Positions 1 through 64,000 of a stretch of DNA of 64,000 nucleotides are shown here, in pieces. The DNA lies in NCBI GenBank assembly GCA_039621445.1, contig CP154954.1:45301847-45365846 (forward strand), read 5' to 3'. The translations under genes and the position numbers were made by a program. The stretch comes from Euglena gracilis (lineage: Eukaryota). Position 1 is the first letter of the stretch, and each line of letters opens with the position of its first letter. Below the pieces are notes generated by a model. That model saw nothing but the letters and a program-made list of their open reading frames with translations. It was not told the origin of the DNA and made no database searches.

Positions 1-3000
1 GACTACGCGGCGGGCCTGGTGGACGCGGACCACATCGACACCATGGCCCGCATCCGCCAGGAGGCGTACGGCGCGGCGGGGCAGGCCCTGGCGGAGGCCT
101 CACGGGGCGTCAAGGCAGACGCCGCCACGTTCCAGCCGTTGCCCACGGCGGCCCATACCCCCTCCAAATTTAAGACCTCCAAATTTAAGACCCCCCCCGG
201 GTTGACTGAGCAAAAAATTCAAAATAAAGACCCCCCAAATTTATCATCAAATTTGGCGCGAAGCCCTGAGCCCGATGAAAAATTCCTGGAATATTACGGA
301 GAACGCTGATTTTGGTGCAAGAATGATTAAAATTCTGCAAACTTTTGACGACTTTGAAACACAAAAAACATGGCGAGTTTTGATTTATACCAATTAACAC
401 ATGGCACGGAGCTCCGAAGGAAAATTTTGAGGCGCTTTAGAAACCCAAAAAAATGAGGATTTTTTGGGGCCCGGGTCGGTCAAGAAAATCCAAAATGACC
501 CCCAAAAAATAAGATCAGGTCTTATTTTGGGGGGTGCTACCAACAGGCTCGCCATAGACCCTCTGTCAAAATGGGAATGTCTTGGGGCCTGCTTCCATCG
601 CCGCTTTCCTGAGGTCCAACGAGTAACTGTGTTCAATGGTGTTGGGACCCATCACGGGGGTAGATCGCAGGATAGATGCATTTTTGATTTATGAGTTGTT
701 ACATGAACAACATATAGCCATTTCTAGATTTCACCTGAAGTTAGTTCACTCCAAATTGCAAAGCTAAGCAAAGAATATATTCTATCTTTTTTGAATGACC
801 AATATAAGTGATTTGAAAATACATTTCAAATATCGGCGCGCAGCGCCGAATAATTTTTTTGGGCGTTCACTAGAGGAAATTGGATGAACAAAATTTCGTT
901 CAGATTTTTTCCCACACCATTTTTTCCCGTTCAGTTCCCCCCCTGCTGCGGAGAGCTCAGGCTCGCCCGTCCCCAAACTCAAAGAGGGCATTTTCTCTTC
1001 AAACATATGGGGGTTGGTCTGTTCAGTCTTTCTTTCTCCATCAAATAGGAGACCCACATTTTCCCTTTTCTCCCCCAACCATGCCCCAAGGATGGGTGCT
1101 ACGCTCCTCATCCCATCCATCCCCCAGGCAGCGACAGGCAGCGACAGGCAGGCACGGGTACCTGGTGCTACCCCCCCCCCAGAAACTGTATCGTCTTTGG
1201 TCCCTGGCCAGCTGTCCTCCGGGGGGCTGGTGCATAGGCACGGGGGGGGGGGGGCTGTTCGGGCTGACTGGGCCGCCGGCTGCCGTGCCAGCGGTGGCGA
1301 AGGCGCAGCAGCTCCAGGCCCAGCTCCAGCAAATGAAGCGGCGGCTGCAGGCGCAGGTGGCGCTGCACCTCGCTCGCCCCCCTCCCGGGCACAATATCCC
1401 TGGAGTGCAATGTCTGCAGGTGGGCATTTGTTGGCTGGTTCAGGCTGGGCACCTTGGACCCTTTGTTTCCAACGCCACATTGTGCTTGAGGTGCCTGTCT
1501 GTATGGTAGTCGTTTGTGTGGAGCCAGACATTGAACGAACCCCTTTGGCGCTTGCCAAGCTTCCAGGGTGGCGATGTGCAGTGTTTTTTCTCTGTTTGTC
1601 CACACCCCCGGACTGCCGGCCGCGGGTGGCCGATGTGGCTGCACCGGAAGAGATCGCCGGCGAGCACCGGGGCGGGGTTTTGTGCGGGACGCAGGGGGAG
1701 GGGGGCGCCCGCTGAGTTGATGGAGAGGACCCAGGACGTGCTCAGCCACGTGGACCCGAAGGCCAACAAGGCGCTGAGGACCTACGCTCAGGGAGACCCC
1801 CAAAGTGCGGGGAACGGCCTCTTTCCTGGGCTGTGTCCCTGGGGATGCCCACCCTGCGGTGCCACGCAGTGCCGGCGTGGCACTGTGGGGTGGCCAGATG
1901 TATGGGAAGCCCTCTGGTTTTGAGTTGGGTGGTGGTGGGGGGGGGTCCTGACCCCCCCCCCGGGGCGTAAGGTGGGGGGTCCGGACTTGGGATTTTTTAA
2001 CGGTTGGACCCCGGGTGGGGGAGGGGGAGGGGTTGGGCCGAGCCGGTACCCCCTGAAGGAGTGTACCCAAAATCGACTCCCCAAGAGTTGGCCCCCCTGA
2101 CCCCCCTTCCCCGGGGGAGGGGGTACCCAGGCCTGGGTGGGTGGGGGGGGGCACCCCCCTCCCCCGGTCTTTAAGAAATACACGGTTCTGAACCCCCCAG
2201 GAGGGGACAGTGCTTGGCAGGTTCCAAAAAAGGTGAAAAATTCTCTTTCGGCATTGCACTCCAGAAAAAGTACCTTTCCCTTTTATGCATACTGCACACA
2301 TGTTTGGATATTTTGGTGTTTCCACAATGGGAAAAGATGTCAAAAAAAAATTCGAAACAACAAGTATTTTGGGGGGTTTATTTTCAAACAGAAAGTCAGG
2401 GATCTTTAAACAATTTTTGGGCTGGTATTCAGCCTTCTGGACCCACAGAGCCAAAAATTTCCCTCCTCGTCACTGTTTCGAGGTTGGGGGGGTCGAACCT
2501 CTCCCCCCCCCTCCGTGTCGGGAGGGTGTCCGACCCCCCTCCTCAGGACTTCCCATACATCCCTGGGGTCAGCATCCCTCTTGTCTTAAGTCAGCCTGTT
2601 GTGGCTGACTTAACGCGCCTTTGTGTGCTCTCTACGACAGCCGGGCACCTCAGCCCATCTCACACGGTTGAGAAATCCTGCGCTGCAGTTCGGAAACGGG
2701 AACGGAACGCTGCTGGTACACACGCCAAGGGGACGTCGGGTTTTCCGATACACTTCGCCGCCGCGGCGAGGCTCCCTGCCCCCATCAACCAGCGGATCAA
2801 GAAACGCAAGGCGTCCTCCCGCGAGAACCTGCTGGAAATGCAGGGCTTCCAGCGCAAGGTGCGGGGCAAGTGGCTGCTGGGGGCCGGCCACTCCGCTGTG
2901 AAATGCGGTAGCTTCTGAAACCCCAGCGGTGACACAATGTGACCAGTTGAAGCCCGAGAGGGGTGCAGGGGGAGATGTGAACCTTTTCAGCCTTCTGCAT

Positions 3001-8055: not shown

Positions 8056-9258
8056 CCACAACGTAACCCCCCCCATTCAAACCGACCCGTCGGTTTAGGA
8101 CTTTTGGGTTGGCGGAACTCCTTCAAGGGGTCGGTTTGGACGGGGGGTTGGTTTCAGGGGGAGCACACAGCTGGCCGACGGCATGCAGACGCAGGTTGAC
8201 GTTAGCAAGGCAATTTCAATTGGCAAATGCCTAATTTGGTTGGCCAACTCCTAAATTTGGCAAATTATCATCCCCCCCTGAGCTATTCCCGTCCCCGGGA
8301 CACTTTACGGCCCAATGGGAACAGCTCGGGGGGGAGACCTAGGTCCCCCCCCCCCCCACCCCCTACCCACCCCCCCCCCCCCCCCGCATCAACCCCCCCC
8401 CCCCCCCCCGAGCTATTCCCATACCCGAACCTCGGGCAGCCAAAAAGAGGTCATTTTTGGCAGCTTTTTGGATGCCCGCAAAAAAATTGCAATTTAAGCA
8501 CATTTGCAAGAAATCAATTTTTTGAAACGTCCCAACAACGTGGATTTCTCAGCACTTTTTTCTCTCGGAAGTTCTTTGTAAAAAAAAGTGCTATGACAGT
8601 GAGTTATTCCCATCCCCCAATGGGAATAGCTCGGGGGGGGAGCTCGGGGGGGCATGTCAATTTGAGATGCAAACTCTTAATTTTCCGGAGCAAATGCCGA
8701 ATTTTGGGTGTAACGTCCAATTTTTGGTGGCAAACTGCCTAATTTTTTGTGCAAACTTCAAATTTTATGTGGCAAATACCTGATTTTGTAATTTTTTGGG
8801 TGCCAACTCCAAATTTTCGGAGGAAAATGCCCAAAAACGCCAAAATTTGGAAGAAAATGCCTAATTTTTGGTGCAAAATCCTGATTTTTGGTCATCAATA
8901 ATAACCAGTCGATGAGCCTGGACGCTCTTTCTGTTGGCGGCTTCCATTATGTTGTGCATGTTTGTCAACTTGCCAACTTTCCGACCATTCGGGCTCCGCA
9001 CTGCGAGATGGTGAGGTCCTGCTTTCCTTGCCGGCTGTTCTGTTCTGGTGTGTTTGTGTGTGCGCGGGGGGTGCTTCTTACTGCTTTTTGTTGCCGGAAT
9101 TGGCTGATTCTTAATTCTGCCCTTCGACCTCAAGGAGAAAGATTTTCTACTCAACGACTTCAACAACGTTCGCCACATCGACCAATCAATACAGCGGAGG
9201 AAGAGCAATTCAGAACATATAGAGAAGCGGAGGAAGAAAATTTTGACTTCCATGAAAG

Positions 9259-22484: not shown

Positions 22485-24418
22485 CAGACCGCCATTTAGT
22501 GCGTATCACAACGTATCTGTGATACATTAATTTTATTTTGGTGATACATATGTGATACATTAAAAATTTTTTGGTGATACACATGTGATACATTAAAAAA
22601 AATTTGGTGATACATATGTGCTACACAAATTTTCCTTGGTGAAACATATAATAAAAGTTGTGAAGCACAAATTTACAAGATGAAAAATTTTCAGACAAAC
22701 ATAAGATGGCGTTCACCCAGCTCCCAGCTTGAGGAACTCAGGTTCCCATGGTGCTCCAGCCCCACTTCCGTGGCGCTGACCTGTCTGCCAAGGCAGGTCC
22801 CTGCCATCTTTTTTTGGGCATGCACGGGTTTTTTCTTTGGGCGGGTCCCCGGCTGCCATATGTTTTTTCTCTTTTTTTGTCAGCAACTTCTCAGCCGTTA
22901 TTTTTAAATTTATTGGACAGGATAAGAGAAGAATGGAACGAAATCTTACATTGTGCTGGATGACGCTGCCAACTGATCCTTCACAGACGCCTGACCCCCG
23001 GTGGAAATGCCATGGGTGCCATGTCCTTAATTGTGATGAATCCAAAAGTTTTCTTGCTGTCAAATGCCTCCTTCCAAAGGGAACCTTCAAAACGCGGAAG
23101 ACAGGATTCCGCAACAACAATTCCTCAAACCATTGACAAGATATTACGGGACTTCGAAAATTTCGAATTTTTTTTGGAAATAATACCCCCTCAAATAATA
23201 CCCCTCCCTCGGGCCGGGACTTAAAGCGAAAAAATAAACCCCGGAGGGTATTATTTGGGGGGGGGTTAGGCCCAAAATAGCACCCAAAACACCCCTTTGG
23301 GGTCATTTTTTGTACTTTCTCATAAAATTTAGCATTTTTGGAAGCCAGATAATCAAGAAAAATCGAATCTTTTCGTAATTTGTTGTCAGATATTTTTATT
23401 TTTACCCAACTTTTCAGGTCAAAATCCGGGTCGTCGGCCCGAGATTTGGGTGGGGGGGGGTATTAATTTGGTGGAGGAAATCGGACCTCGAGGGGGGGGG
23501 GTATTATTTGGGGGGAGGGTTTACCTCACCCCTCCCGGGCGCTTGGCCTGGGCCATGATTGAAGGTAAGGCCAGGGGGCCAACCTTAGGGGGCCAAATTT
23601 GCGTGTTAAGAATTTTGGCGGCCATGTGCAAAGGGCCAACTTTAGGGGGGCCAAGTTTGCATGTAAGGAGGAGCGGAGCCAAGCCCCCGGGCTCTCCCCC
23701 CCAAGCTATTCCCACAGGGGGGACGGCAATGGCTCACTGTCATTGCACTTTTCATAAAGGACGTCCCAAAAATTAAATGTGCTCAAAATGAATGTTTTTG
23801 GGACATTTTCAAAATTGATTTTTGGCAAACGTGCTTAGAATTGAACATGCGAACGGGGAGGTAATCACTATAACCCCGACTACAGATTGGAAAAACTTTT
23901 GCTGGGAGAATAGGCGAGTTGTAACCGAAACACATTGCCGAAAGCATTATCACAAGAAAAATGTACCATTTGTCTGCAGAGAGGCAAAGAAACAAGGATG
24001 AAAAGCGGAACAGAAAGGGAAAAAATATTACATTTTGATGTAAAAATGGAAATTTTTATGAAAAATTTGGTGATACATATGTGATACATTAAAATTTTAT
24101 TGGTACAGTAAAAAAATTCTGGTGATACACATGTGATACATTAAACCCCCCCCCCCAAATAACACCCCCCCGGTGTGTTATTTGGGCACCCGAACTGGGG
24201 CCCCAGGGGGGGGGGTGTTATTTGGGGGGGGTGTTATTTTTACATGGAAAACCAAAGGAAAACAGGGGGGTGTGTTATTTTGGCGCTTGAAATCGGCCCC
24301 CGAGGGGGGGGGTGTTATTTGGGGGGGGGGAGTTATTTGGGGGGGGGGTTAATTTTTAGGCTGTGATACATGTGATACTCAAAAATTTTTTTGGTGATAC
24401 ATACTAAATGGAGGTCTG
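22485..24418. mobile_element. hAT/P-like non-autonomous element, CAG...CTG termini, 8-bp TSD ATCAACAA
   Basis: TIR CAGACCGCCATTTAGTGCGTATCAC / GTGATACATACTAAATGGAGGTCTG; ATCAACAA at 22477-22484 and 24419-24426; many subterminal GTGATACA motifs; nested insertions inside. Confidence 0.9.
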
Positions 24419-38638: not shown

Positions 38639-41176
38639 GTCTACCGTTTGGCACTGCCCCCCACCCAGGGGGGGCATGGGGGTGTGTCTGGGTCGGAATT
38701 TTTTTTTCGCCCAAAAACACTTTTTTTGATGTTCTAAAGTGAAAAAAAGTGTTTTTTGAGCAAAAAAAATTTTCTGTGTCAAGGACTGTGTTTGGGCAGA
38801 GGACTGGTTTGGTCAAGGACTGTGTTTGGGGAGCCCAGGGGCGGGGACCGCGGCGCCGCGGTCGCCCCTGGGCCCCCCTAAAACCTTGGCCCAAAACACT
38901 GTTCTTGTTTGAAACCGTGTTTTGGGCGAAGATTTAAGACTTTTAAAGTCTCGAAATCGGCCCAAACACAGTTTCAATATTTTTGGTCCCGACTTGCCTC
39001 CCGACCCGACCCCCCCCCTCGCCCAGCCGCCCTCACACCGCCCGCAGAGGTCCCCGAATACCCAAAAATGGCCCAAAATGGCACAACCAGACCCCGGGAA
39101 CCCCAAAAAACGGTCAACCCCCCCCCCTAAACCTAATGATTGACCCCCTGGTTTGGGTCCCAACTCCTCATCTGGCCCGAGATACGGCCAAATTACGGTT
39201 TCGGGCCCCGAACGGGCCCGAAACCGCCAAAACTGGCCAAACTGGCCCAAACCCCCAAAACGGCCGTATCTCGGGCTTAGGCGAGGAGTTGGCCCAAACC
39301 GCGCATACCGATCAATCGGGCGTCCCAAAGTTGTGGAATGGCGTCCTCTTTAATCTTTCTCAACTCCGCGGCGTTTTCGAGATACTTTGAATTTTTCGTT
39401 TTTTTGACCCCAAAATCACCCTGCAATTTCCCCGGAAAAAAAAACGGTAGACAACTTTTTTGCTCGGGCCATATCTCCGGACTGGCGGGGAGTTACGGGT
39501 AACCTGAGGGCTCTGGGGAAACTAGGGATCGTCCCCTAACCTATAGGCCATTCATTTTGGAAACCCGGAAATCAGGTCACAACGTAATAATCCTCAGGCC
39601 ACCCTGCCTACCCAGGGAGGGGGGGGGGCGGGCGGGGGGGGGGGGCGGGGGGTAAGCTTCGCTCTTACTCTAAAGAGATAAGAGCTCAGCGACCCCCCAT
39701 CTTAGGCCGCTGTTTGGGGTCAGGATGGAGTTCACTGGCTCAGCAACGCCCTGGTCCTTGCCCAAGTGCGACTTTTCGACCACTTTTTGGTCAAAATCTG
39801 AAAATTTTGAAATGTTCGAAAGTCCCCCCAAAATTTCAACCTTCAACCCATTTCTGAAACCGTGTATTGGGGCTCTGGCTTCACACCCGAACCGGCGTCC
39901 AGAACGCCGGTTCGGGCGGGAAGACGGCGTCCAGGGGACCAAAATAAAAAGTGCCAAAAAGTGTCCAAAATGGTGTTTAGACATGTGGCAATCATATCTG
40001 AGCAGTTTTTGGGGGGTATTTGGTCAGAAATTGGGGTATTTTGTGCAACAATTTCCATTTGGCCAAATTTGGCGATTTTGTGAAATAGATTACCATGCAG
40101 CACGGCTGAAATCTAAGGCCATCTGCTGAAAGCCCTTAGCTTTCGATTGATATGCTGTATGGCACCTGAGGTGTGGGATTTCACAAATTAGGATGTCAAA
40201 TTTTGAAACACACGATCGCTGAAAACAAGCGCTGTGTGCATTATTGCTGAATCCTGTGGCCATCTGTCAAAAGCCCTTGAGAAGAGCTTTCGATTGATGG
40301 GTAACATGGCATCACATTCGTGAAAACTTCAATCGGCCGATCGACATGGCCCTTCGCCCAAAGGAGGTCAAAAATGCTCAAAAAGGTTCAAAAAATGAGT
40401 ATTTAGGCCGAAATTGGCCGTGATTCCTTGAACGCCGGTTCGGGCGTGAAGCAGAGCCTCTAATCCACGGGTTCAACAACTGTGTTCAGAACGCCGGTTC
40501 GGGTGTGAAGCCGTGTTCCAGAACGCCGGTTCGGGCTGCGTTCTGAACACAGTTTTCGTATCAGAGACTTTTATGCACAAAAATCAGCGAAAAAAAGTGC
40601 CATCACGTCACTCGGGCAAAGCAGAGGATTTTGGCCAGGTGTCAGGTCGTTGGGTGAAGGGGATAATTCAGTGCCTGCCAGCACCACAAAATTTGTCGAA
40701 GAAGAATTCCTTGCGCCCTTCTTCTGCACAATTGGTCCCTTCCCAACAAGGATGGGAAAATGTGTTGAGATGGGGAAAAAGATGGGAAGAAATTTTTTGT
40801 CCAACGTTCATCAAATTTTTCTTTTTCTGAAAAATTCAGTTTCCTTTGTTGTTCAATGCATCAACTCTTTTTTCACTCAAATTTTCTTGAATTCATTCAT
40901 TTGTGGAGGCAACTTTTCCTGTGGCTCTTGGCACTTTTCGGAGGTGCTGGAAAAATGCTGGAAATTCCGGCACAGTGTATTCATGTCAAAGGGCCAAATT
41001 CTTTAATTAACAACATCGAATTGAGTGACCGATGGATGTTGCACAAAGAAAAGAAGAAACACCACTTGGAAAAAATCCCAATTCTTAAGTTTCCGTGTCA
41101 CAGAGTTGCAAACCTGTGGAGTCCTTCTCAGCGCCCTGAAAGATAAATTCATAAGGATGGTGACGTAACTACAGTG

Positions 41177-41626
41177 TCATACCGCCTTTGCCTCCCCCTT
41201 CTCCGCTGGGTCCTTGTCCAACTCATCGAACTTTGGTCCCTTCGTAACAACAACCATCAAGCGTGCTTGACCACGCTCAGAGAGCGAAGTTTCAACCTTT
41301 GTAACCTGCAGGCAAGAGGAATTTTGACGTGGTAAATATTCCTTTCCGAAGCAAACCGTGACTAACCCTTCTTGTCTCTTGAGAATCTCACAGGCACCAA
41401 CAACGGTTGTGGTGGCATCACCTAAACCTGTAAGCTTGACTTCCAGTTCACCACCTACAAAAACAAAACAAATTGTCTGCAGTCCTTTAAAAAAAGAAGG
41501 AGAACCATGAAGGAATCGCTTCGTAAGGTTAGCATAGAACACAGGAGATCGCTGCAAGCTAACACTGATGGTGTTCGCAGTTCCCTCTTTATGTTCTGCG
41601 GGCGCTGGAGTTTGCTCCTCAGCCAT
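41177..41626 (-). CDS. ALBA: Alba-domain nucleic-acid-binding protein, 115 aa after splicing; exons 41626-41506, 41454-41357, 41305-41177
   Basis: NTISVSLQRSPVFYANLTKRFL..EVKLTGLGDATTTVVGACEILK..KVETS..ARLMVVVTKGPKFDEL fits the small eukaryotic Alba pattern (family-level call). Two GT-AG introns, 41505-41455 and 41356-41306, account for the two inserted peptides. Confidence 0.88.
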   Translation of the reverse strand: MAEEQTPAPAEHKEGTANTISVSLQRSPVFYANLTKRFLHGSPSFFKGLQTICFVFVGGELEVKLTGLGDATTTVVGACEILKRQEGLVTVCFGKEYLPRQNSSCLQVTKVETSLSERGQARLMVVVTKGPKFDELDKDPAEKGEAKAV

Positions 41627-41729
41627 CTTTGGTCTCGAACAGAAAAGTTCTTTTGTGTGTGGGAATTAGGAATTACTACAACCCTTTTTCAATGATTTTT
41701 CTTCTTCCTTGAAGGCGAAAGGTCGCTGA
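41627..41729. promoter_or_regulatory. Compact divergent intergenic region with candidate trans-splice acceptors on both strands
   Basis: Plus: TTTTTCTTCTTCCTTGAAG (AG 41713-41714) before ATG 41730. Minus: CTTTTCTGTTCGAG just upstream of the Alba ATG. Function is inferred. Confidence 0.45.
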
Positions 41730-44700
41730 ATGTTCCTGAATGACGTTCCTGGCGGTGTGAGAAGACCACCTACTGCAGAGGCTGGCGATAGATTTGGGCA
41801 ATCCGGATTGATGAGTAGTCCAAGCCGGGTACTCTACTTCCGCCACCTACCAGACTATGCAACTGACTCCGAGATTAATGCTGCATGTGCACCTTTTGGT
41901 GTTGTCACAAATATCCTGAAGCTGTTGAACAAGAAGGAGGCTTTCGTCGAGTTTGCTTCCCTACAGTCAGCCCAAAAATTCATGCACAACACCGGAGGCA
42001 ACACCATTGTACGTGGGAAGCACGTGAAGGTTGTGTACTCGGACAGGCAAAATCTGACACTGCACACTGATTTGCATGAAACGCCTCCAAACAACATTCT
42101 ATTTGTCCTGGTCACTCTGCTCCTTCATCCCGTGGATGTTGACACTTTGTACCAAGTGTTTTCCATGGCTGGACGAGTGCGGAAAGTTGCAATATCACCC
42201 AAGAATGGACAAATTCAAGGCTTTGTGGAGATGGAGAGTGTTCAAGAAGCTGCCACCGCAAAAGAGCAGTTCAATGGAAAACACATTTTTACTGGATCTT
42301 GCCACATGCAGATTCAATTCTCCCGGTCAAACGCCAACTCACAGCCTTTTGATTTCTGAATACATTTTAATTTTGCAAATCAAACAGTGCAAGTTGGCGT
42401 CTGCTGAAGACTAACTTCCATTGATGCAAAGTTGTGTGCAAAGGACTACACAGTTGAGAACCAGGGACAACCGTCCTTGCTCTCAACTCCGCCAGGTGCC
42501 CTGGGACCTCCAGCTTATCCCATGGCTTCCACTGGAATTCCCCCAGCAGCTCCTCCTCCACCAATGCAACCCGCCTACGGAACATCCAGCACCATGACCT
42601 ATCAGCCACCACCACCACAACAACCGCAAGATGATGGCAGCCAAATGTGGCAACAGCAGGCACAGTTGTATCCTGCTCCTCCAGCGACTTCTTATCAACG
42701 TGTTTTGTGGGTTAAAAATGTGGATGAAAGGGCAACGCCACAGATACTGTTCAACTTATTTGGCACAGCAGGAGATGTCATGAAGGTGAAAAAGCTGTTC
42801 AGGAAGCGTGACATGGCACTGCTGGAGTTCCGGGACTCCAGCCAAGCCTGGTCAGCACTCACCAACTTGAACAGATGCCCTCTCATCGGAAAGATTCTCC
42901 AAGTCAGCTGGTCACGCACAGGCTGGTCTCAATTCTGGGTTTCCGGATTTTTTTCTGGCAACAATTGTGGAGTTCACGAAGACTAACCCAGGTTCCACTC
43001 CTCGAAAGTCAGGGACTTGACTTGGAACAGAAATTGATCCAAAATGCTGACCAATCTCTGACAAAATTCGAAAACTTGGGGTGAATGAGGGAGTGGGATT
43101 TTACGCTTCAAATTTTGGTAAAACTCCAAGCCTGACTGCAGGCTAAAAGTTATGCTGAATGCCCAAGACCGATTCCCCACCACAATTCTCAATAAAATTT
43201 GGTGGGGGTCGCAGAGCGACGGAAGGGTTGGCAGCTGATTCTGATAAAAACCGTCAGGACAACGCTCATCACTGATCCTGCCACCCCAGTGGTTAACCCC
43301 CCCAACCAAAAAATGGTGTTAGTTTTCTCTAAAGGAATTTCCGGTCATGTTTGCTACTCGAGCACCACCAAACCGAAAACCTAACCCTAACCCTATTCCT
43401 TCAAGAACCAAAATTTCCGAATTTCCTTTCCTTGCATTCTGGTGGCGGAACGATGCAATCACTTGATTGGCTTTTGATACAAACCCCCGGGGTGTCACCA
43501 CAAAAAATGTGAAAACTGGAGGGGAGTCCACCCCACCTTTTTTTTCAACCCAACAGGCCCAGCCAGACTTGGATTTGGACTGTTTTTGCCTGCTTTTGGG
43601 TGGGGTACCCACTGAGTGCCGCTGCCAGCCCCCCGGGGTGTCCAGCCAGCACCTTTTTCCAGCTGGCCCCCCCTCTCCCCCCAGGAGATTCCGCAAGAAA
43701 ATTCCTGACTCGGGCAGGCCGGTTGGATAGAAAGAACACCAAAATATCAGTCTGGTTGCATCACCCCTATTTGATGTCAACAGGAGCAGAGGACGATGGT
43801 CTTACCCAAGATTTCAGCAACTCTGACATGCATCGTTTCCGGAAGCCAGAGAGCAGGAACTTCGATCACATCCGCCCACCGTGCGACACGCTGCACATAT
43901 CTTGCAACATTCCTTTGGATCCTGAGGCTTTGGCTTCCCTGTTTTGGCAGTATGGTGCTGTTCAAAGTTGCGAACTGTTCAAGACAGACAACACCAGGGC
44001 CACAAGCAGGCAAGTGCTCAGAAGCAGCACACACCGAGCCCAAATCAAGTGATCTGCGTGTTGAGCAGCAATTTGGCTGCTCCCGCAACTTTCGCTCCCG
44101 CAGCGAAAGTTTGTGGGATTTTTTGGAAAGAGACTTCAAAATAACTTGTTGCCATTTTGGTACTTGTCTGTTATCGTACGACATACCCCCCCCCCTTTTG
44201 GTTATGGTACGACACCCATTTTTTGGGTTATTTAGGGTTAATTAAAGGTATAGGGTTAGGTGCGCACATGCCATGTTGCGCTACATGGCCACGTTGCGCT
44301 ACATGGCCATGTTGCGCTACATGGCCATGTAGCGCAACATGGCTGTGTAGCGCAACATGGCCATTAGCGCACCTAACCCTACTCCTTCAATAGCCCCATA
44401 ATAGCGCTACATGGCCTTGTAGCGCAACCTGGCTGTGTAGCGCAACGTGGCCGTGTAGCGCAACATGGCCATGTAGCGCAACGTGGCCATTAGCGCCTAA
44501 CCCTATTCCTTTAAATAACCCTAAAACAACTCAAAAAACAGGTGTCGTACCATAACCAAAAGGGGGGGGGTTATGTCGTACGATAACAGACAAGTACCGC
44601 CATTTTTTTGCCGTTTTTTGGGGGGGGTTTCCACTCAAGAATCAGGCTGGAAACCAGGCTGGTTGGATTTGGGCTTTTTTTTGCCTTGCTTCGGGTGCCA

Positions 44701-47563
44701 GCCGGGTCAACCCACAGCTGCACAAGGATCCCCGCAAACCTGTGGGTGGTGGGGGAGTCCAACCCACCCCCAGGCCTTATTTTCGGGGGCGCCGAATTTT
44801 GGGTCAAAGTTTTCCTTCGGCACCAAGGGAATTTTCTTTGAGTGGGTGTCATGGCGGGGGGGTCAGTGTTGTATGGGAAGCTCCGCAGACATGAGGTACG
44901 TGGTACCCCCTGGTTTTGGAATGGGGTCCCCCCACCCCCCTCCTCCGACATTCCCAAGCCTGGGTCGACCCCCCCACCTCCCATCTGACTCCCATAATGG
45001 CGCGCATGCGGGGGGGGGTCAAAATATTTCTTCCCACGCTTTCCACGAAAAACCAAGAAAAACTCCAAACCCTGTCTCTAGTGAGAACCCCGGGGTCCAC
45101 AAAGCCCTTTGGGCACCCTCCCTGGTGTTCCAAGCCTTTTTAGAAAAAATCGTGTTCCACCAATTTTTTGGTCGGATCCTTCAGCACCTAATTGTCCGAC
45201 CACATTCGCTGGGCACACACATGGAATAAGTGGGGCCCCCATTCTTGGGAGGTGTGGGGGTTTATTCCCCCCCCCCCCTGGGGACTTTTAATTGATTAAC
45301 TGATTAATTATTAACTGGAGTTTAATAGGTTGCGCGATTTTGCCCAAAAAAGCAAGTCGGTGGACACTGACGAGGTTCATTTTCTCCGGGGGGGGAGAGC
45401 TCCGAAGAAAGGGCCAGAAGGGCAGAATGCATTGCTCAAACCAGACAGAAGTCAAAGTGCATCTAAGGGGGGCAGGAGCCCCCCCCCCCTTCGGGCACTC
45501 AAACAGTTTAATGGGTCCCCCGATGTGCCAACAAAATGATGATTCGGAAAAAGTATCAGCCAGATGCATGTGGTGGGGTATGGTGGCCCACTTTGTGCCA
45601 TGACTCTCACTTGGACTTGAAACTTCTTTTTTTTTTGTGGTTTCCTCCCCCTTCCCCTCCCCCTTGGGACCTTCCCCTGGTCAGCCAGGGTGGGTGGGGG
45701 GGGCACCAGTGGTCTTTCTCTTGAAGGAACCTTGGTGCGGATGACAACAATCAAAATTATACAGAAACCTTTGGTTCTCGAAATGGGTGGGTTGCCTTTC
45801 TCCTGGTTGTATGAGGAATCAACTGCAAGCACCTGTCTGCAAAAGATCAAGATGGATTCTGTTGAAAGTGCAGTTCATGCTTTGGTCGCTTTGCATGGAT
45901 ATGTGATGGATCCAACCAGGCTCCTGTAAATGCCTTTTGACCTTTTGCAGAAGGCTTCACCATTTTGATAGAAACTTCTAAAAAAAATTCAAGAAGAAAA
46001 TTCTTCCAAACAAAGAGCAAGAATGTGGTGGCTTCCAAGGTTTATTTGTGATTGACAGTGACAATTCAATCGCTTCCCCAACAAATGGCGACATTTTACT
46101 TTTTTTCCACCAAAAGCTTCTTTGGCCAAACCGGATGGTTCAGGTTGCTGGTTGCGCAGTCCATCTTCACCCCCATATTTTCTGTTCGTAGAATGATTTC
46201 CTCATCTCAGAAGCCTGGATCCTACAGCTCAAGGTCATGAAAAATATTCTGGGAAGGGCATCTGGATTGCTTTTGCCGCTTGCAAGCCGCGTCCTGCAAG
46301 GGGAAGACCAAGGCTTGAAGGTGCCCCACCGCAAGTTGAGGATCCCTCATCATATTACAGTTCCCAGGGCATGTGCGAAACTTCTTTTGCAAATTCTTTT
46401 CTTTCTTGCCTGTTTGGCTGTTTCGCAATGTCCTGTGTCTGGCTACCCTACCGAGCCGGAGTCTTTTGGCACCATGCTCCCGCCACCCCCACCCAGACGT
46501 TCATTTATTGCATCAGCAAAAAAATTTGTGTATCACTGTGCATCACATATATCACAAAAATTTTTAGTGCATTAAATGTGTATCACGAAAAAAGCAGGTG
46601 ACAAAAATGCGACACGTTTTGTTCCCTGCAATTTCTTGAGTTTCTCTGAAATGATTTGATCTGGGCCATACCATTGCTCAACACCTGTCCTACCCCACCC
46701 CGGGGGGGTGACTGACTGGTTTTTTCAGAGTGACTGACTGGTTTTTTCAGAGTGACTGACTGGTTTTTGGCCAAGAGCCCCCCCCCCCCCGGGGGGGTGG
46801 GGTAGGCCCGAAAATGAAAAAGTGACGCCAAAGGCGCCGGAAATTTTTTGGATTTTTTGAGACTTTTTGGCAATATTTCATTGCCTCCTGAAGAGTGGCT
46901 GATCCCCCCAGGGGGGGGGGTAAAGTGACTGACTGGTTTTTTTCAGAGTGGAAAGTGACCGCCCCCGGGGGGGGTCGCCAAGCAATGGTATGATCTGGGC
47001 CCAATTGTTCCTGATACCAAACTTTTTGTCCTTTTTTTATTGTCTTTTTGATTTTTGGGGGGGGCCAGTGCATATCAAAAATTTCGACATTTTTTTCACT
47101 CGGAAGACCACCTCCACACACACAGACAAGAAGGGCCAAAGGCAATACCACAAAGAAATTTGTGTATCACTTGCACATCACAGCGACATTATGATATACA
47201 CCAAGTGAATGTCTGCCCACACCCCCACCGCCCGCTGAGAACTACGACGGCTTTCAACCTTCATATGGGCCCAGTGGCATGAATCGGTACGGACACCAAT
47301 ACCCAGAATCCTGTTGGAACCCTCCCCCACCAAAAGAAAAAGATTGGATGCACCATGGTCCAGCATTGTCTGTCCACTTGGCCGGAAGACTTTTTTTGCA
47401 AGGGTTTTGGGTGGGTGGGTTGATTGAAAACAAGAAGGCATTCGATTCCATTGTCCTCTGCGTTTCCCCAGAGGTCTGCATGAATGGAAACATCACATTT
47501 TTCTGAAAGAAAGAATCTTGTTAACATTTTTTTTCTGGAAAATCCAGCGGATTCTGTTCCCAA
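41730..47563 (+). CDS. PTB: PTB/hnRNP-L family protein, 4 RRMs, predicted 561 aa; exons 41730-42324, 42409-42915, 43760-44003, 45845-45913, 46223-46361, 46441-46490, 47221-47300, 47562-47563
   Basis: PSRVLYFRHLP; HPVDVDTLYQVFS..NGKHIFTGSCHMQIQFSR|LTSI..KDYT; TPQILFNLFG..GDVMKVK; DGLTQDFSNSDMHRFRKPESRNFDHIRPPCDTLH; RAT|IKMDSVESAVHALVALHG; GIWIAF. Exon lengths sum to 1686 nt with no internal stop. Alternative start at 41811. Family-level call; last two exons less certain. Confidence 0.88.
42325..42408 (+). other. PTB intron 1 (84 nt), readable as non-canonical or as GT-AG (42326-42409)
   Basis: ACGCCAACT / AGTTGGCGT stem; both registers give FSR|LTS. Confidence 0.8.
42916..43759 (+). other. 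PTB intron 2 (844 nt), non-canonical
   Basis: CAGGCTGGT / ATCAGTCTG stem; C|G...C|A; joins SWSH-HPYL. Confidence 0.82.
44004..45844 (+). other. PTB intron 3 (1841 nt), non-canonical
   Basis: CAGGCAAGTGCT / AGCACCTGTCTG stem; joins RAT-IKM, restoring RRM4. Confidence 0.85.
44159..44598. mobile_element. Foldback MITE with GG...CC termini and 8-bp TSD GCCATTTT (Merlin-like by termini/TSD)
   Basis: TIR GGTACTTGTCTGTTATCGTACGACATA; TSD at 44151-44158 and 44599-44606; internal 18-bp GTTGCGCTACATGGCCAT repeats in both orientations. Confidence 0.9.
45914..46222 (+). other. PTB intron 4 (309 nt), non-canonical
   Basis: CAGGCTCCTG / CAGAAGCCTG stem; flanks GATCCAAC / GATCCTAC. Confidence 0.85.
46362..46440 (+). 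other. PTB intron 5 (79 nt), non-canonical
   Basis: CAGGGCATGTGCGAAAC / GTTTCGCAATGTCCTG stem; phase-0 join YYS|GYP. Confidence 0.78.
46491..47220 (+). other. PTB intron 6 (730 nt), non-canonical, MITE-derived
   Basis: CAGACGTTCA / TGAATGTCTG stem; flanks CCCCCACC / CCCACACC; TGTATCAC subterminal motifs. Confidence 0.82.
46667..46992. mobile_element. CA...TG MITE with 8-bp TSD ATCTGGGC, nested in intron 6
   Basis: TIR CATACCATTGCT / AGCAATGGTATG; TSD at 46659-46666 and 46993-47000; GTGACTGACTGGTTTTTTCAGA repeats. Relatives at ~26140, ~48270, ~51250 and ~52070. Confidence 0.9.
47301..47561 (+). other. PTB intron 7 (261 nt), non-canonical; splicing creates the TAA stop
   Basis: CAGAATCC / GGATTCTG stem; T|AA join. 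Confidence 0.65.
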
Positions 47564-50500
47564 TTCACGGATTCGCGCGACCGATACCTGACCAGCTTGA
47601 CCCTTTTGAACCGGTTGACTTCGACGAACCAAAGTCAATGTAATCCGTGACCCTTGACTCCACTGGCCATAGAGATGTGACTCCACGCCCCGATTCTGTT
47701 TGGCAGAACTGCTTCTGGAGAAAAAACTTTCTCACCATAACTTGTTTGGAAATAATGAGCCGAAACTTTTCGGTGTTTAGCATGGAAAGTTTAGATATGA
47801 TTGTCAAAATGGTGGTTTGCCAATCAATTTTGGTTTTGAGGGTTTGGGGTTCACCCCAAAATTTTGATGTAAAACGTAACTGAGCTGGGCTTCTTTGGTG
47901 GGCTTTGGGTATTTTTGGTCAAGCCTGCCAGCCAACCTTTTCTCTTCATCTAACCTTTTTTCTTCAGCTTACAGCTTGGATCTTTCAATGCCCATGCAAG
48001 CCAAAAGGATCACAGGTTCTCTGTGTCCTCAAACAGAATCTTGCTGCTTTCACCACTGACTCACCTCTGGGGTCGCACAAAACCTCAAGTCCAGCTTCCG
48101 GACATTTCTAATATCAGCAACATCCTTGTGTCTGCAATCATCCCCCCCCACCAGGTGTCTTTAAGTCAGAACACCCCCCCCCCCCCGCGAGATGGTTGGG
48201 TTTGGGGCTGGACCCCCTGGGCAGGGATAGATGGGAAGCCCTTCGGTTTTGAGGCAGTGAGGGGGGGGGGGGGGTCACTGACTGGTTTTTTGAAAGTGGA
48301 AAGTGACCCCTCCCGGTTGGTTGGTAAGCAATGGTACGGTCCGGACCCCCAGGGGTGTTGGGAGGGGAGGTCCGGACCACCCCACCCCCCCCATAGTTCC
48401 AAAAATAGCGGATTTTCCTTCCGACGTGGTGTCCAGGTCTTCCACAAAACCGAAAATTTCCCCCCCCTTCAGTTTCGAGGTGGGAGCAGGGGCTTTTTTT
48501 AGTCGTGGACCCCCGGGGGGGGGGGAGTGGGTCCGGCCAAGCCCCCCAGGGGGGAGTGGGATATACTTTTTCGGCGCCGAAATTTTTTTGAAGAGGTGCA
48601 ATTGGAATTTTTCGCAATTTTTGAGTGGGTCCCCCGGGACCCCCCCCCCCCAGGGAGGGGGGTCCCCCCGGACCCCCCCCCCCCGGGGCGGGGGACCCCC
48701 CGGCCGCCCCCCCAGGGAGGGGTGGGTGGGGGGACCCCCCCCCCCGATCTTAAAAAAACCCCTGGGTGGGAGGGGGGGAAGTCTCGACTGGTCTGGAGCC
48801 GTCCGGGGGGTCCCAGGCCAGAGGCGGGTTCGCCGAAAATTTTTTGGAAAATGGCTGGGGTTCCTGAAAAGTAGCTGGCCCATCCCCCCCCCCCCCGCCC
48901 CTGCCCCCTCAAAAAATCCAAGCACGTCTAAAGATAGCAAAGTTTTTCTTTCGCACTGCGCCCCGGAAAATATATAAAAAGGCCTTTTTCCATTTTTAAG
49001 CATGTTGTACATTTGTTGATGTTTTGGTGTTTTTGGAAAATGTTCAAAATTTGAAACACACAAAGCCCTTGTGGGTTTTTATGATCCCCTGGCAGGGTTT
49101 TGGCTATTTTCCAGCGCAAAGCGCCAGATATTTTTGACCACACCCCCTCCCCCACAGGCAGGGCAGAACGGGAATCGGCCAAACAGCCAGGGTGGTGGGT
49201 GGGGGGGGGGGTCGACCCCCCCCCCCCCCTCCCACCACCTCTCCCATGTTTCCGGGAGCACCAATTTTTGGACCCGAAAAAAATTTCCGGCCTTTGGCGC
49301 CGGATGTTTTTTTTGCCCCATTTTGGGAGGCCCCCCAAAAAAACCCCTGAAAACCCCATTTTTTCACAACTTCCAAAAATTCAACATTTTCTCAATTTTT
49401 TGATTTTGAGAGGTTTTGAAGCAAAGAAAATGCCATTTAAAGTCCAAAAAAATCTAAGAAAAAAAATGTCTGTAAAATTTGATTGTGCCAAAAATTGGTC
49501 CACTTTTTTTGACCTGCATTTTTTCCACCCCCTTCCTAAAAACTACCAATTTTTTACCCTGAAATGTTTGAGATTTTTTTGTGAAAAAATGTGGTTTTCC
49601 GTCAAAAAATCATGTGTTTTGGGTGCATTTTTCCGGCCAAAATCCCCGTTTTCCCGAAATCGGTGAAAATTCTGTGGTGGGTGGGGGGGTCTACCAACCC
49701 CCCCCCCCCTCCCAGGTGTTCCCGTTCTGCCCTGCCCACAGGGGTGGGGGACCCCTCACTCCCTGTCCAACCCCTGGGGGGGGTGCCTGCTATGGGCACC
49801 TCAGCACAAGGAACCCTGAAAAGAAGCCTGGGGTCTACACCTCACCAGGCCTTCCTGCACAGCCCCCCCCCCCCCCGCAGGGCTATTTCGGACTTCAACT
49901 TTGTCACCATTTCATTAGTGGGATTTGCCGAATAATTTTGTCCAATGAACCCCATTGGACCAAATTATCAATTTTTCTTCACTGTGCAGCAACAGTTGCA
50001 GAGAATTGATTTAATTGTGGGCCCTAAACCAACCTCCTCCACATCCCTGGGTTCAACCCATTGACTTGCCCCCTTTCTCTCTTCCCATTTCGAGTCGCCC
50101 CAGAGCTTTCAACGATGGCCAGCTGGTTTTGTTTTCACCAAAAAAAACCATACAACCTGCCCCGATCAGGTCAATGGTCGACGGGCCGCCCATCCCCCCC
50201 TTGGGGGTCCAACCAGCCAGCCCCCCCTCCAATGATGAGTTTCAGACACCCAAGGGACGGCTGGACGGTGATTGTGCACAAAGTGGGTCAGAAAGCTGGT
50301 CAGGGCATAATTTGGGGTGGAAAAAGATTGGCAGTTTGAAAAAATTTTGCAGTTTCGATTTTTCTTGGTTCCTGGTTCAATCCCCAGTTGGCCAATTCTC
50401 ACTTCCTGGGGGGATCAGCCAGCCCAAATTTTCGTGTGGAACACCTTGGGGGTCGCTCAGCGACACGCTGGCTCCGATTCTCCAGGGTTTTGCAAGAAAA

Positions 50501-52387
50501 AACCTTCATCTCGGTGTGAATATTTTTTCCCAGTTCTGAGGAAGAAACCCACCTGCATTCCAGCCTGGAAGCTCTGGTTCTGATTTGACCTCTGCTCATT
50601 TCCATCTGGCCAACAGGGTCTTCTTCACCTCTTCTTTGTCAGCTGGTGTGGGGGTTTCTTTGGCAACAGAAACAGATGTGTGTGCGTATCAGGGTTTTTT
50701 TTTTAGTCTTGGACCCGGGGGGGGGGGGTCCAGCCGACCCCCCCCCCTACCAGGGGGGATGTGTGGTTGAAAGCAGCACAATTTGTGTTTAAAAACAAAA
50801 AAAGGAAATGCATCTACCCTCCACATGCTCTTTGGTAGCACCACACCCAGAGCCAAACCTGCCAGGGCCTGGGGGTAGGGCCACCCGTTCCCAAAAATAC
50901 GCTCCCACCTTTCCCGCAGCCGACAACAGCCGAAATGGACCATTTTTGGCCCCAGGGGGTTCGGAATAGTGAATGACTGTCCGGTCCGGGGGTGGGGTAG
51001 GCATGAAAATGAAAAAGTGGCTGGCTTGGCGCCAAAGGCGCCGGAAATTTTTTGGAATTTTTTGGCAAGTGATTCATGATAAAGGAATAGGCAAACTCCA
51101 GGACATTTGTGTGACCATTCTTCTGATTAAACTCTGCCTCCTTTTCCTCAAATTGGGTGAGGCCACATATGAGAACATACCTCCAATCTCATTGCGTCAC
51201 CATGGTGCCTTGCCAACATAAGCGAATTCAAGAGTGGTCGATCCCCGGGAGTAAAGTGACTGACTGGTTTTTTTCAGAGCGGAAAGTGACCCCCCCCCCT
51301 CAGGGGTCGCCCAGCAAGGGTTTGGTCCGTCCAAGCCCCCCCCTGGGGTGGGATATATTTTTTGGCGCTGAAAATTTTTGAAAAGGTGCTATTTTTAGCT
51401 TTTTTGTGATTTTTCGGCCATTTTCGGGGGAAAGTGAGTGGGTGGTTGGGTGGGGGTCCCGGTCGTTAAACCCCATGGTCGACAAGAAACGGTTTGGGGC
51501 TTTTTCGTGCAGCCCTTCCAGTGAATTCTTTGTTGTTTCTGACCAGATGCTTTTTTTTGGTTTGGGAGATGTTTCAACACCAAGAGATCCCAACACCATC
51601 ATCGCTTTTGTGACAATCTCACCACTGTCCAGAAGTGTCCAACCAGTCGGGAGGGAGGTTCTTGACAATCACATAAACTTCTGCCCCTGCCACTGTTTCT
51701 GCCCACGTCATCTGTCACATGAGAAGCAGGATAGTTACTTTGCAGAAAGGTTAAAAAGACAGTATTTGTTTTTTGAGAGAAATTTGTTTTTTGAAAGAAA
51801 TTCATTTTCTGCAAGCAAAACCTTCATCATCACAATTTCAGGCATTGCCCAAACTCTCGGTCTTTGGCACAATTAGGCAGAGAGAAAAACGTTTGAAATG
51901 GTTTGGACGGAATTAGTTCACTAACATATGAACCCCATTTCCAGGGAAAAGAGGCCTGCGACTCCTGGTATATTCGGGGGGCAGTGGGCCAAATAATTGA
52001 ACTTCATCTTTTGCGTAAGCCTCTGCGTAAGTCCACTGCTCCACACCTGTCTCCCCCCCTGGGCCAATGGCCAAAAAGTGACCGGTTTTCCTGAGTGGCC
52101 GACCCCCCCCGCCCCGGAGGGAATAAAGTGACTGACAAGTTTGGCCGAGAAAAGTGGCTGGCTGGTTTTTTCGGAGTGGAAATCGGACTCCGGTGAAGAA
52201 TGATCCAGGAGGAAGGGACAGCGAAGGCGGAGCACAAGACAACAGTGAGGTCCTGCTCTTCTTTCCGGCTGTTGTTTGCGTTTTTAGGTGTTGGTTGCGG
52301 TGTTTCTTACTGCTTTTCTTTGCCGGAGTAGGCGGATCATAACGTCCTTTTTGGCACGGAGCTACAACCAAAGTATTCAAGCTGATT

Positions 52388-63770: not shown

Positions 63771-64000
63771 AGTTTTCTGAGATGTCTCTTTTCTGGGAAT
63801 TCACTTGGATTTTCTGGCTTCAGCGCTTCAAATACCACTTTTTTGTAATCCTTCCGCTGGAACTTCCACCAGTAAAACCCAATGCAAGGCATCAAAAAAA
63901 AGTATTCCAAGACGTTTTGAACAAGGTATTCAGCTTATTGCCACCTACAAAGTGAAATGGCAATTTTTTCTGTGAATTAGGCTTTGCTCTTCCTAATTTT

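Follow-up and report, generated by a model that had tools for sequence, protein, structure and literature searches.

Nonconventional introns of a euglenid PTB-like gene and the 8-bp duplications of CAG-ended elements in the same window

The origin of the nonconventional introns of euglenids has been an open question since the 1990s, with a MITE hypothesis dating from 2013, and the PTB-like gene described here raises it in an almost arithmetical form. Its introns are cut 3 nt before a CAG and 5 nt after a CTG, and the sum of these offsets is also the length of the 8-bp target-site duplications (TSDs) that flank CAG-ended elements in the same window (the whole stretch of 64,000 nucleotides that was analysed). 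The 3 + 5 spacing itself is already published: an N3-CDG..CH'G-N5-6|R splicing signature was proved by knock-in, and splicing depends on N3 as well as on N5-6 (Nomura et al. 2025, PMC12501133, excerpt). Likewise, 'TSD-like' repeats and a MITE origin were proposed earlier (PMC11282704, PMC3935182, excerpts). An explicit link between 3 + 5, 8 and a TSD was not found in the literature searched, nor is a transposon family, TSD length or superfamily named for these introns in the literature examined. What is new here is that N3 plus N5 is read as the 8-bp duplication which CAG-ended transposons of the window carry at their flanks, and the 8-bp TSD reading gains support. It is likely, in our view, that some of these introns, at least, began as CAG-ended elements with 8-bp TSDs that inserted into exons, and that 3 + 5 excision returns the pre-insertion mRNA. 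The evidence consists of junctions and a sum of 8 taken from RNA, of 8-bp duplications, and of the family homology of one intron, intron 6.

Seven nonconventional introns, all verified by RNA, divide the region, which covers the 3' two-thirds of a PTB-like gene of a euglenid (Table 1). A spliced-leader acceptor lies at about 41714, where a loose end '...ATTTTTTTTC' precedes 41714 in RNA contigs (X17), and removal of the seven introns yields a single open frame from 41730 to '...MNRYGHQ*'. The exons match Pfam RRM_1 (4e-16), RRM_5 and RRM_8 (31.6 bits, cut-off 26.2), and PTBP1/2 chains among the solved structures match them with E values of about 4e-15 to 1e-14; exon 4, at 22 amino acids too short, has no significant match among solved structures. 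The frame is kept across introns 1–6 after their removal. At intron 7 the junction t|aa itself creates the TAA stop codon, so that frame restoration cannot be claimed there; of the statement in the sequence-only reading that 3 + 5 cuts restore the frame at all seven introns, the junctions are thus upheld by RNA in 7/7 and the frame at introns 1–6, but not at intron 7. It is also worth considering that introns 1 and 2, which lie in different RRMs, share both their phase and their position in the RRM_5 profile (99 of 125), an observation that counts against random insertion, which predicts no such thing.

Joints in raw RNA reads (X21 and X24) and RNA contigs (X17) are present for all seven PTB introns, that of intron 1 being covered by 170 X21 reads and 29 X24 reads. 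Whatever the slide of a joint, the skipped length minus the span from CAG (CAA in intron 1) to CTG is 8 in every case, and the 3 + 5 placement lies within each slide range. Because intron 3 has no slide, its split is fixed at 3 + 5; the splits permitted at introns 1, 2, 5 and 7 intersect only at that value, so that the slide ranges jointly allow 3 + 5 alone. Under this placement CAG at +4 to +6 pairs with CTG at -8 to -6 (again with CAA in intron 1), and the first downstream exon base is a purine in six of the seven introns; intron 4 has a T, but slides by 7 nt. The borders are non-GT/AG (CG..TG, AA..AA, TG..CC, TT..TC, CA..CA and AC..CC), the exception being that intron 1, and only intron 1, is also readable as GT..AG within its 1-nt slide. 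All seven introns obey the splicing code of euglenid nonconventional introns and show no difference from them as introns; the +4 to +6/-8 to -6 pairing in that group was reportedly described by Milanowski and colleagues in 2014. No back-joined intron reads, the signature of a circle, occur among the joints listed. Excised introns of this type have been reported as circles, leaving by a non-spliceosomal route (cited in PMC11282704 and PMC12621601, excerpts). Overall, the earlier account of the CAG/CTG boundaries holds, with corrections for the stop at intron 7, the GT..AG option at intron 1 and the low complexity around intron 6.

Introns downstream of the stop show how far the register extends. 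That the offsets of RNA-defined junctions sum to 8 is true of all seven PTB introns, but among the 11 RNA-defined plus-strand introns here eight fit the 3 + 5 register, two have offsets that sum to 9, and in one a clear terminal stem is lacking. Introns 8 and 9 are based on a joint, 47686>50030, that carries 15 intervening letters identical to 48049–48063. Intron 8 has a 12-bp helix that leaves 5 and 8 bases unpaired, its register being wider by one base at the 3' side, intron 9 contains two CAG..CTG elements, the skipped length of intron 10 minus its CAG..CTG span is 9, not 8, and intron 11 attains the 3 + 5 register within its 2-nt slide.

Table 1. Coordinates of the exon, introns and elements discussed in the text (positions of the window; leftmost placements are those of the RNA joints).
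Feature	Coordinates	Strand	Description	Leftmost placement	Evidence
PTB-like gene, first exon in view	41714..42324	+	RRM1-RRM2		open frame from 41730; Pfam RRM_1, RRM_5, RRM_8
Intron 1	42325..42408	+	84 nt, CAA..CTG, 9-bp inner helix, flanks 3/8	42325-42408	joint 42324>42409, slide 1
Intron 2	42916..43759	+	844 nt, CAG..CTG, flanks 3/8	42915-43758	joint 42914>43759, slide 1
Intron 3	44004..45844	+	1841 nt, CAG..CTG, flanks 2/8	44004-45844	joint 44003>45845, slide 0 (only slide-free junction)
Intron 4	45914..46222	+	309 nt, CAGGCT..AGCCTG, flanks 7/8	45907-46215	joint 45906>46216, slide 7
Intron 5	46362..46440	+	79 nt, CAG..CTG, flanks 2/8	46361-46439	joint 46360>46440, slide 1
Intron 6	46491..47220	+	730 nt, CAGACG..GTCTG, flanks 7/8	46490-47219	joint 46489>47220, slide 5
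Intron 7	47301..47561	+	261 nt, CAGAATCC..GGATTCTG, flanks 1/8	47301-47561	joint 47300>47562, slide 1
Intron 8	47687..48048	+	362 nt, CCG..TTG replacing CAG..CTG, past the stop		RNA joint
Intron 9	48064..50029	+	1966 nt, without CAG/CTG, without clear terminal stem		RNA joint
Intron 10	50097..50581	+	485 nt, CAGAGCTT..AAGCTCTG		joint 50096>50582, slide 1
Intron 11	50639..51601	+	963 nt, TGG..CCA replacing CAG..CTG		joint 50638>51602, slide 2
T8	8461..8883		weak candidate CAG..CTG pair, poor inverted ends		8/8 flanks ATTTTTGG
T22	22485..24418		1934 bp, ~26-bp inverted ends CAGACC.CCATTTAGT..GTATCAC		exact 8-bp duplication ATCAACAA
GGTAC element, nested in intron 3	44159..44598		27-bp perfect inverted ends		exact 8-bp duplication GCCATTTT
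Element nested in intron 6	46667..46992		ends CATACCATTGC..GCAATGGTATG		exact 8-bp duplication ATCTGGGC
T48	48487..48764		CAG..CTG element, 278 bp		exact 8-bp duplication GGTGGGAG
T49	49159..49734		CAG..CTG element, 576 bp, 16-bp perfect inverted ends CAGGGCAGAACGGGAA		exact 8-bp duplication CCCACAGG

The 8-nt flanks of the PTB introns fall into two classes, with no gradient between them. Recomputed, the identities are the same as those given from the sequence at the outset (7/8 at introns 4 and 6, 3/8 at introns 1 and 2, and 2/8 or less at introns 3, 5 and 7), but the age gradient that had been suggested for them is rejected, because 1–3/8 is indistinguishable from the chance level of cross-paired flanks, of which 0/90 reach 7/8 (maximum 6, mean 2.5). 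At five of the seven introns, therefore, identity is at chance level and the claim of a transposon origin does not reach them. At intron 4, flanks 45909–45916 (GATCCAAC) and 46218–46225 (GATCCTAC) agree in 7/8 at length 8 and shift 0 only, with 0–4 for every other length or register tested. Intron 6 (46486–46493, CCCCCACC, against 47216–47223, CCCACACC) has 3–5 at all other shifts, and its 7/8 is weak alone because the flanks are low-complexity, C-rich proline codons. A match confined to length 8 is seen, within the PTB introns, at intron 4, but intron 6 also gives 5–8 at other lengths. It could be argued that such repeats are a by-product of a pyrimidine|purine preference at both ends, combined with local composition, rather than scars of insertion. 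Indeed, Y/R at both junctions has been reported (PMC6221363, excerpt), five of the seven PTB introns slide by 0–1 nt with each 1-nt match sitting at the cut itself, and intron 6 lies within proline codons. A preference of this kind cannot, however, yield repeats of 7–8 nt that are limited to an 8-nt register, as they are at intron 4 and at the elements T22, T48 and T49, and we consider the explanation very improbable.

Elements with duplications of this length reside in the window itself. Strong CAG..CTG pairs, defined as those with at least 7/8 further complementary positions, number 57 in a window-wide scan, and in three of them the flanks are identical (8/8) when read in the register that abuts the pair, compared with 0/57 in each of seven shifted registers; in a looser set (at least 6/8 complementary, n=434), five reach at least 7/8 flank identity, against 0–1 in control registers. 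The duplication of T22, ATCAACAA, lies at 22477–22484 and 24419–24426, and that of T49, CCCACAGG, at 49151–49158 and 49735–49742; T22 also contains many subterminal GTGATAC/GTATCAC repeats. Confidence in T48 is moderate because its flanks are G-rich. The repeats of T22, T48, T49 and the GGTAC element are exactly 8 nt long, since the ninth bases differ, and at the CAT-ended element nested in intron 6 the match continues into the terminal bases of the element. DNA depth in X12 is about 9,500 in the bin of the GGTAC element versus about 8–11 in exon bins, about 23,600 in the bin of the CAT-ended element, and about 5,000–10,000 over T49. The bins of intron 4 have a depth of about 8, consistent with a single copy, and no family was detected for this intron. 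No transposase was seen in the seven window ORFs scanned, whose matches comprise only RVT_1, Alba and a sub-threshold Dam. The DNA contigs of organism B (X12) contain no empty site that we could see; they span introns 4 and 5 fully and, at intron 1, extend over most of its length with 6 nt deleted. The elements with perfect TSDs are known here from DNA, and the evidence of splicing comes from the introns; joining the flanks of these elements as putative exons gave no convincing spanning frames.

Sequence comparison makes intron 6 a relative of T22 (22485–24418), diverged and in inverted orientation, with homology at both ends. The 5' end of the intron scores 50 against the reverse complement of the T22 3' end (shuffles 14.5 ± 2.5, maximum 27, n=500), and the other pair of ends scores 23 (shuffles 14.5 ± 2.2, maximum 24). 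Furthermore, T22 (14 copies) and the 5' region of intron 6 (2 copies) are the only places where a 250-nt bin holds two or more GTATCAC/GTGATAC motifs. This is the only related pair of intron and element found within the window.

This homology bears on a more sceptical account, in which two eights merely coincide: 3 + 5 would be nuclease geometry only, the repeats at introns 4 and 6 would be due to chance or to staggered double-strand-break repair, and the transposons would be unrelated residents. Such repair was proposed by Milanowski et al. 2016 for the eight-nucleotide direct repeats at the junctions of a recently gained, strain-specific gapC intron of Euglena agilis, and the 8-nt repeat of gapC intron 4 has been interpreted in print as a product of break repair (PMC4770533, excerpt). 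The five PTB introns without a repeat above chance, the lack of a detectable family for intron 4 and the low-complexity flanks of intron 6 all agree with it. Yet the ends of intron 6 are homologous to a transposon with a perfect 8-bp duplication, and the 7/8 duplications of introns 4 and 6 directly adjoin exactly the CAG and CTG that the splicing code uses; also, the repeats at T22, T48 and T49 are exactly 8 nt, whereas break repair leaves repeats of variable length. We therefore hold coincidence to be improbable. The equation of 3 + 5 with one 8-bp TSD has introns 4 and 6 and the resident CAG..CTG elements with 8-bp TSDs in its favour, but not the flanks of the other five introns.

By their termini and the length of their TSDs, the elements appear hAT-like. 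The termini of hAT elements begin with (C/T)A(G/A), their target consensus is nTnnnnAn, the transposase that mobilises them has a hAT dimerisation domain, and CAG/TAG ends together with an 8-bp TSD and short subterminal repeats make up the classic hAT layout. The ends CAGAC, CAGGG and CAGGC fit the terminal consensus, and the 8-bp TSD is exact at T22, T49 and T48, with introns 4 and 6 at 7/8. Likeness to hAT-type MITEs and to maize Ds includes the 8-bp duplication, short CAG-initial inverted ends, subterminal repeats (in T22) and non-autonomous genic copies; it differs in that no transposase is known for the elements of the window. It is conceivable, though rather less probable than not, that the transposon link is right and the elements belong to some other superfamily with 8-bp duplications, such as P, Merlin or one that is undescribed. 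Six TSDs here deviate from the hAT target consensus, in numbers too small to judge: in the four perfect CAG-ended TSDs plus intron 4, a small sample, the T at position 2 is present in 2/5 and the A at position 7 in 3/5. Merlin families have been described in E. gracilis, with terminal 5'-GG and duplications of 8–9 bp (PMC8101967), and have in common with the present elements an 8-bp duplication and the group of organisms. The GG rule is followed by the GGTAC element nested in intron 3 (44159–44598), whose Merlin-like ends are of GG type rather than CAG. It is, however, the only one with GG: the intron-like elements begin with CAG and have CAG..CTG, not GG..CC.

Taking CAG-ended insertion as the preferred reading, the following sequence of events may be envisaged. 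A CAG-ended element would insert into an exon, duplicating an 8-bp target, and a structure-measuring excision by the host would be guided by the CAG/CTG stem that the termini of the element form. The cuts would then fall 3 nt upstream of the CAG and 5 nt downstream of the CTG, together 8 nt beyond the inverted-repeat core, so that the element and one copy of the duplication are removed and the pre-insertion mRNA is back. Since the excision is wider than the stem by just the length of the duplication, a fresh insertion could leave the message traceless. Insertions may accordingly be spliceable at birth, and perhaps most nonconventional introns arose from them. The 3/5 split would amount to a 2-nt 3' overhang in stem register, which fits an RNase III-plus-ligase route (PMC12621601) without proving it, and the identity of such an enzyme is putative; given a 2-nt stagger and a sum of 8, 3 + 5 is the sole solution. 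A bolder version sees the splicing machinery as an eraser of transposons, tuned to hAT-like CAG/CTG termini, with the 3/5 ruler equal to the 8-bp duplication and with ligation after a cut of RNase III type, to which the 2-nt stagger would point, and to this we would give slightly less than an even chance. If it were true, any new exon insertion would be silent at birth, and it would explain why nonconventional introns are the majority in Euglena agilis and why their junctions are mostly 'slidable'.

It is informative to compare this scheme with transposons that are removed from RNA elsewhere. Ds insertions are said to have been found spliced from maize transcripts by Giroux and colleagues in 1994; the spliceosome removes Ds through cryptic sites, usually imprecisely. 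Introners, known from Micromonas and other algae and typically present as many near-identical introns in different genes, are closer in that splicing of the RNA takes out a short inverted-repeat DNA transposon that has landed in an exon, with the TSD as part of the geometry that restores the message, but they are spliceosomal, with one splice site of their own and the other co-opted from a 3-nt duplication (PMC11282704, excerpt). In contrast, the PTB introns are removed by a measure taken on an RNA stem, lack GT/AG, are associated with an 8-nt duplication and are of a type whose excised intron is reportedly circular; their borders and CAG/CTG landmark do not show the spliceosomal use of element or TSD splice sites that defines an introner. 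If 3 + 5 is one 8-bp TSD, then the N3 and N5 spacers, the abundant junction repeats and the 8-nt repeat of a newly gained intron would come under one mechanism, and the introner principle, in which an element is spliced out together with one TSD, would extend to a non-spliceosomal, structure-measured excision.

A few further traces of the element families were seen. At 26967 lies an end resembling that of T22, for which no partner with a matching flank was found. A partial second copy of T49 lies on the minus strand at about 19086–19514, where no clear second end was found. A metagenome scan with a 22-nt T49 end gave 0 matches, and 25 metagenome loci sharing an 18-nt word of a high-copy MITE were set aside as chance matches, since they share nothing else with the window. 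In the weak candidate T8, the motif TTTTTGG is repeated internally, close to each end.

In all seven introns of the PTB-like gene, the length skipped in RNA exceeds the CAG..CTG core (CAA..CTG in intron 1), counted from its first C to its last G, by 8 nt. This sum does not depend on the slide, the number of nucleotides by which an RNA junction can shift with equal fit, and it is a stronger statement than the finding that the placement proposed from sequence alone, 3 nt before CAG and 5 nt after CTG, falls inside the slide range in 7/7 cases. These results come from placing two RNA-seq read sets from different studies (X21 and X24), RNA contigs (X17) and DNA contigs from a differently labelled organism B (X12) on positions 38700-51900 of the window; X21, X24 and X17 recovered the joints of all seven introns, and besides the X21 reads (see table) each joint has 10-29 X24 reads and one X17 contig. 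Introns 1 and 7 permit a 3+5 or 4+4 split and introns 2 and 5 permit 2+6 or 3+5, but the split is fixed at 3+5 because intron 3 has no slide, and 3+5 is the only split common to all. Overall, the original observation is real and RNA-supported. The sequence-only reading also held that all seven introns restore the reading frame; introns 1-6 do keep it, whereas the intron 7 junction (t/aa) creates a stop, and the claim therefore fails there. Intron 1 can also be read as GT..AG with a 1-nt slide and could therefore count as an "intermediate" intron; X12 contigs lack 6 nt at 42352, inside this intron, and keep the rest to 42379, where the contig ends.

Window 41714-47700 (plus strand) is a euglenid PTB-like gene. 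Its exon frames match RRM_1 (4e-16), RRM_5 and the PTB-type RRM_8 profile (31.6 bits, cut-off 26.2), exon 3 matches human PTBP1/2 chains in their RRM3-RRM4 linker and RRM4 (E ~4e-15 to 1e-14), and the stranded X24 reads assign the transcript to the plus strand. An RNA contig carries a loose end, "...ATTTTTTTTC", immediately 5' of 41714, which is taken as a spliced-leader junction, ATTTTTTTTC presumably being the tail of the Euglena spliced leader. With the seven introns removed there is a single open frame that ends "...MNRYGHQ" at the stop. The transcript runs >4 kb past this stop (47562-51900), through four further introns and a micro-exon; joining the exons beyond the stop yields 139 consecutive codons that are open in the PTB frame, and this downstream part could be read as a 3' UTR or as a second cistron. 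An RNA joint that goes back 20 at 50030-50049 (50049>50030; 97 X21 reads) points to an expressed allele in which 20 nt are duplicated in tandem compared with the window. At exon positions 41792, 42026, 42446, 42599 and 43971, a second letter in ~40-75% of RNA reads, absent from older contig runs, resembles variation between alleles or strains more than editing.

Introns of the PTB-like transcript and mobile-element candidates in the window
Feature	Position	Strand	Skip (nt)	Slide (nt)	X21 reads	Remarks
Intron 1			84	1	170	
Intron 2			844	1	190	
Intron 3			1841	0	86	
Intron 4			309	7	93	
Intron 5			79	1	102	
Intron 6			730	5	22	
Intron 7			261	1	104	
Intron 8	47687-48048	+				RNA; downstream of stop
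Micro-exon, 15 nt	48049-48063	+				between introns 8 and 9
Intron 9	48064-50029	+				RNA
Intron 10	50097-50581	+				RNA
Intron 11	50639-51601	+				RNA
T22	22485-24418					TSD ATCAACAA; inverted ends ~26 bp
T48	48487-48764					TSD GGTGGGAG; G-rich
T49	49159-49734					TSD CCCACAGG; perfect 16-bp ends CAGGGCAGAACGGGAA
Weak CAG..CTG case	8461-8883					perfect flanks
Nested element, GGTAC ends	44159-44598					inside intron 3; exact 8-bp duplication
Nested element, CATACC ends	46667-46992					inside intron 6; exact 8-bp duplication

Own-pair identities of the 8-nt flanks, for the 10 RNA-defined introns whose stem end could be defined, are 3, 3, 2, 7, 2, 7, 1, 1, 2 and 3, the first seven reproducing the earlier values for introns 1-7, while cross-paired flanks (n=90) average 2.5 and peak at 6, with 0/90 reaching 7. 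The proposed age gradient is thus not borne out: values of 1-3/8 are at chance level, and the introns instead form two classes. The repeat at intron 4 (GATCCAAC versus GATCCTAC) is clean and register-specific, with 7 matches at length 8 and shift 0 only; the other lengths (4, 6, 10 and 12) and shifts (from -4 to +4) give 0-4. Intron 6 always gives 3-5 once shifted and reaches 5-8 when the length is varied, and its 7/8 is weak by itself because its flanks are C-rich proline codons. Intron 7 has CCAAT on both sides (47296-47300 and 47560-47564), 3 nt off the 8-nt register (6/8 at shift +3), which may be chance or an old scar shifted by an indel.

The same register recurs when every CAG..CTG pair in the window, 30-3000 nt apart, is scored with its flanks in the abutting and in seven shifted registers. 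Among pairs with at least 7/8 further complementary positions (n=57), three have 8/8 flanks when abutting, versus 0/57 in each shifted register; at a threshold of at least 6/8 (n=434), five reach at least 7/8 (the three 8/8 cases and introns 4 and 6) versus 0-1, and at one of at least 5/8 (n=2220), eight versus 1-4. The repeats of the perfect cases, namely T22, T48, T49 and the weak one at 8461-8883, are exactly 8 nt, since their ninth bases differ. Matches in the G/C-homopolymer-rich tandem repeats (~165 bp) at 35400-37100, where spurious inverted repeats and "TSDs" are many, were left out as low complexity. Two further elements lie nested within introns; X12 contig depth, which is not copy number, is ~5,000-23,600 in their bins versus ~8-14 in exon and intron 4 bins, suggesting that they come from high-copy families.

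The window holds transposons of the right kind and one intron-transposon homology. Local alignment of the first ~57 nt of intron 6 to the reverse-complemented 3' end of the CAG..CTG element T22 scores 50 (500 shuffles: 14.5 +/- 2.5, maximum 27), and alignment of the intron's 3' end to the 5' end of T22 scores 23 (shuffles: 14.5 +/- 2.2, maximum 24); T22 against the ends of eight other introns or elements scores 10-24. Only T22, with 14 copies, and the 5' part of intron 6 have 250-nt bins in which subterminal GTATCAC/GTGATAC occurs at least twice. Judged by these similarities, intron 6, a nonconventional intron confirmed by RNA, belongs as a diverged member to the CAG-ended, 8-bp-duplicating family of T22, inverted relative to it, a kinship that adds weight to its own 7/8 flank.

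The most likely way for such an element to become an intron is the following. A CAG-ended element would insert in an exon, duplicating 8 bp, and its inverted ends would pair in the pre-mRNA; the excision machinery would then read the CAG/CTG stem base and cut 3 nt upstream and 5 nt downstream, removing the element plus 8 nt, or one duplication copy, so that five left-copy bases and three right-copy bases rebuild the original sequence. The arithmetic, by which 3+5 equals one copy, is certain, and the landmark and spacers of nonconventional splicing are experimentally established in print (PMC12501133). Such insertions would be spliceable at birth and may be the main source of nonconventional introns. 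In stem register, the 3/5 split would correspond to a 2-nt 3' overhang, the feature that typifies RNase III-type cleavage; two cuts that are offset by 2 nt and have to total 8 can fall only at 3+5.

The 3+5 rule itself is already known. Milanowski et al. give the +4..6/-8..-6 pairing and the idea of a MITE origin (PMC3935182), which Nomura et al. also suggest (PMC12501133). Nomura et al. showed with knock-ins a requirement for 3 nt ahead of CAG and 5-6 nt behind CTG, and they describe 84.4% of the introns of E. agilis as "slidable" via direct repeats (PMC12501133). Also in print are a 2024 review that mentions "TSD-like" junction repeats with no length stated (PMC11282704), direct repeats of eight nucleotides at a newly gained, strain-specific intron of gapC, interpreted as break repair (Milanowski et al. 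2016, PMC4770533), Merlin families of E. gracilis that have GG ends and duplicate 8 bp (PMC8101967), and proposed RNase III-plus-ligase or tRNA-splicing-like routes (PMC12621601). An explicit equation of 3+5 with one 8-bp TSD of CAG-ended (hAT-like) elements was found neither in the passages cited here nor by a full-text literature search whose reach stopped short of supplements and some subscription papers; the link appears not to be in print, and for part of the introns it has good support.

Several observations stand against generality. Five of the seven PTB introns have no scar, no family was detected for intron 4, and we found neither a transposase among the seven window ORFs scanned nor an empty site. 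Introns 1 and 2 (42324/42409 and 42915/43760) are both in phase 1 and both at RRM_5 profile position 99/125, in RRM2 and RRM3; such homologous spots are unexpected from independent random insertion. Offsets that do not sum to 8, which the sequence-only reading had itself named as a refutation, occur in a minority of the 11 RNA-defined plus-strand introns: two give 9 and in one the motif is missing, while by terminal-helix register 8/11 (introns 1-7 and intron 11, which has TGG..CCA instead of CAG..CTG) fit 3+5. Intron 10 has a good stem (CAGAGCTT/AAGCTCTG), yet its skip minus span is 9; the 3' side of the intron 8 helix is wider by one base; and the helix-register check of these introns gave no clear terminal stem for intron 9. 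The sums of 9 match the acceptor-side N5-6 tolerance described in PMC12501133.

Beyond the transcript, window 52000-64000 is a tandem array of ~3.2-kb repeats with long open frames, a retroelement array because an 810-aa frame (58671-61100) carries a reverse-transcriptase domain (RVT_1, 5e-13). Divergent from the PTB-like gene lies a highly expressed Alba-domain gene (41114-41665, minus strand), with a spliced-leader-like loose end at 41634; its three introns, 47-51 nt long, are conventional GT..AG ones, and both intron types therefore occur within 1 kb.
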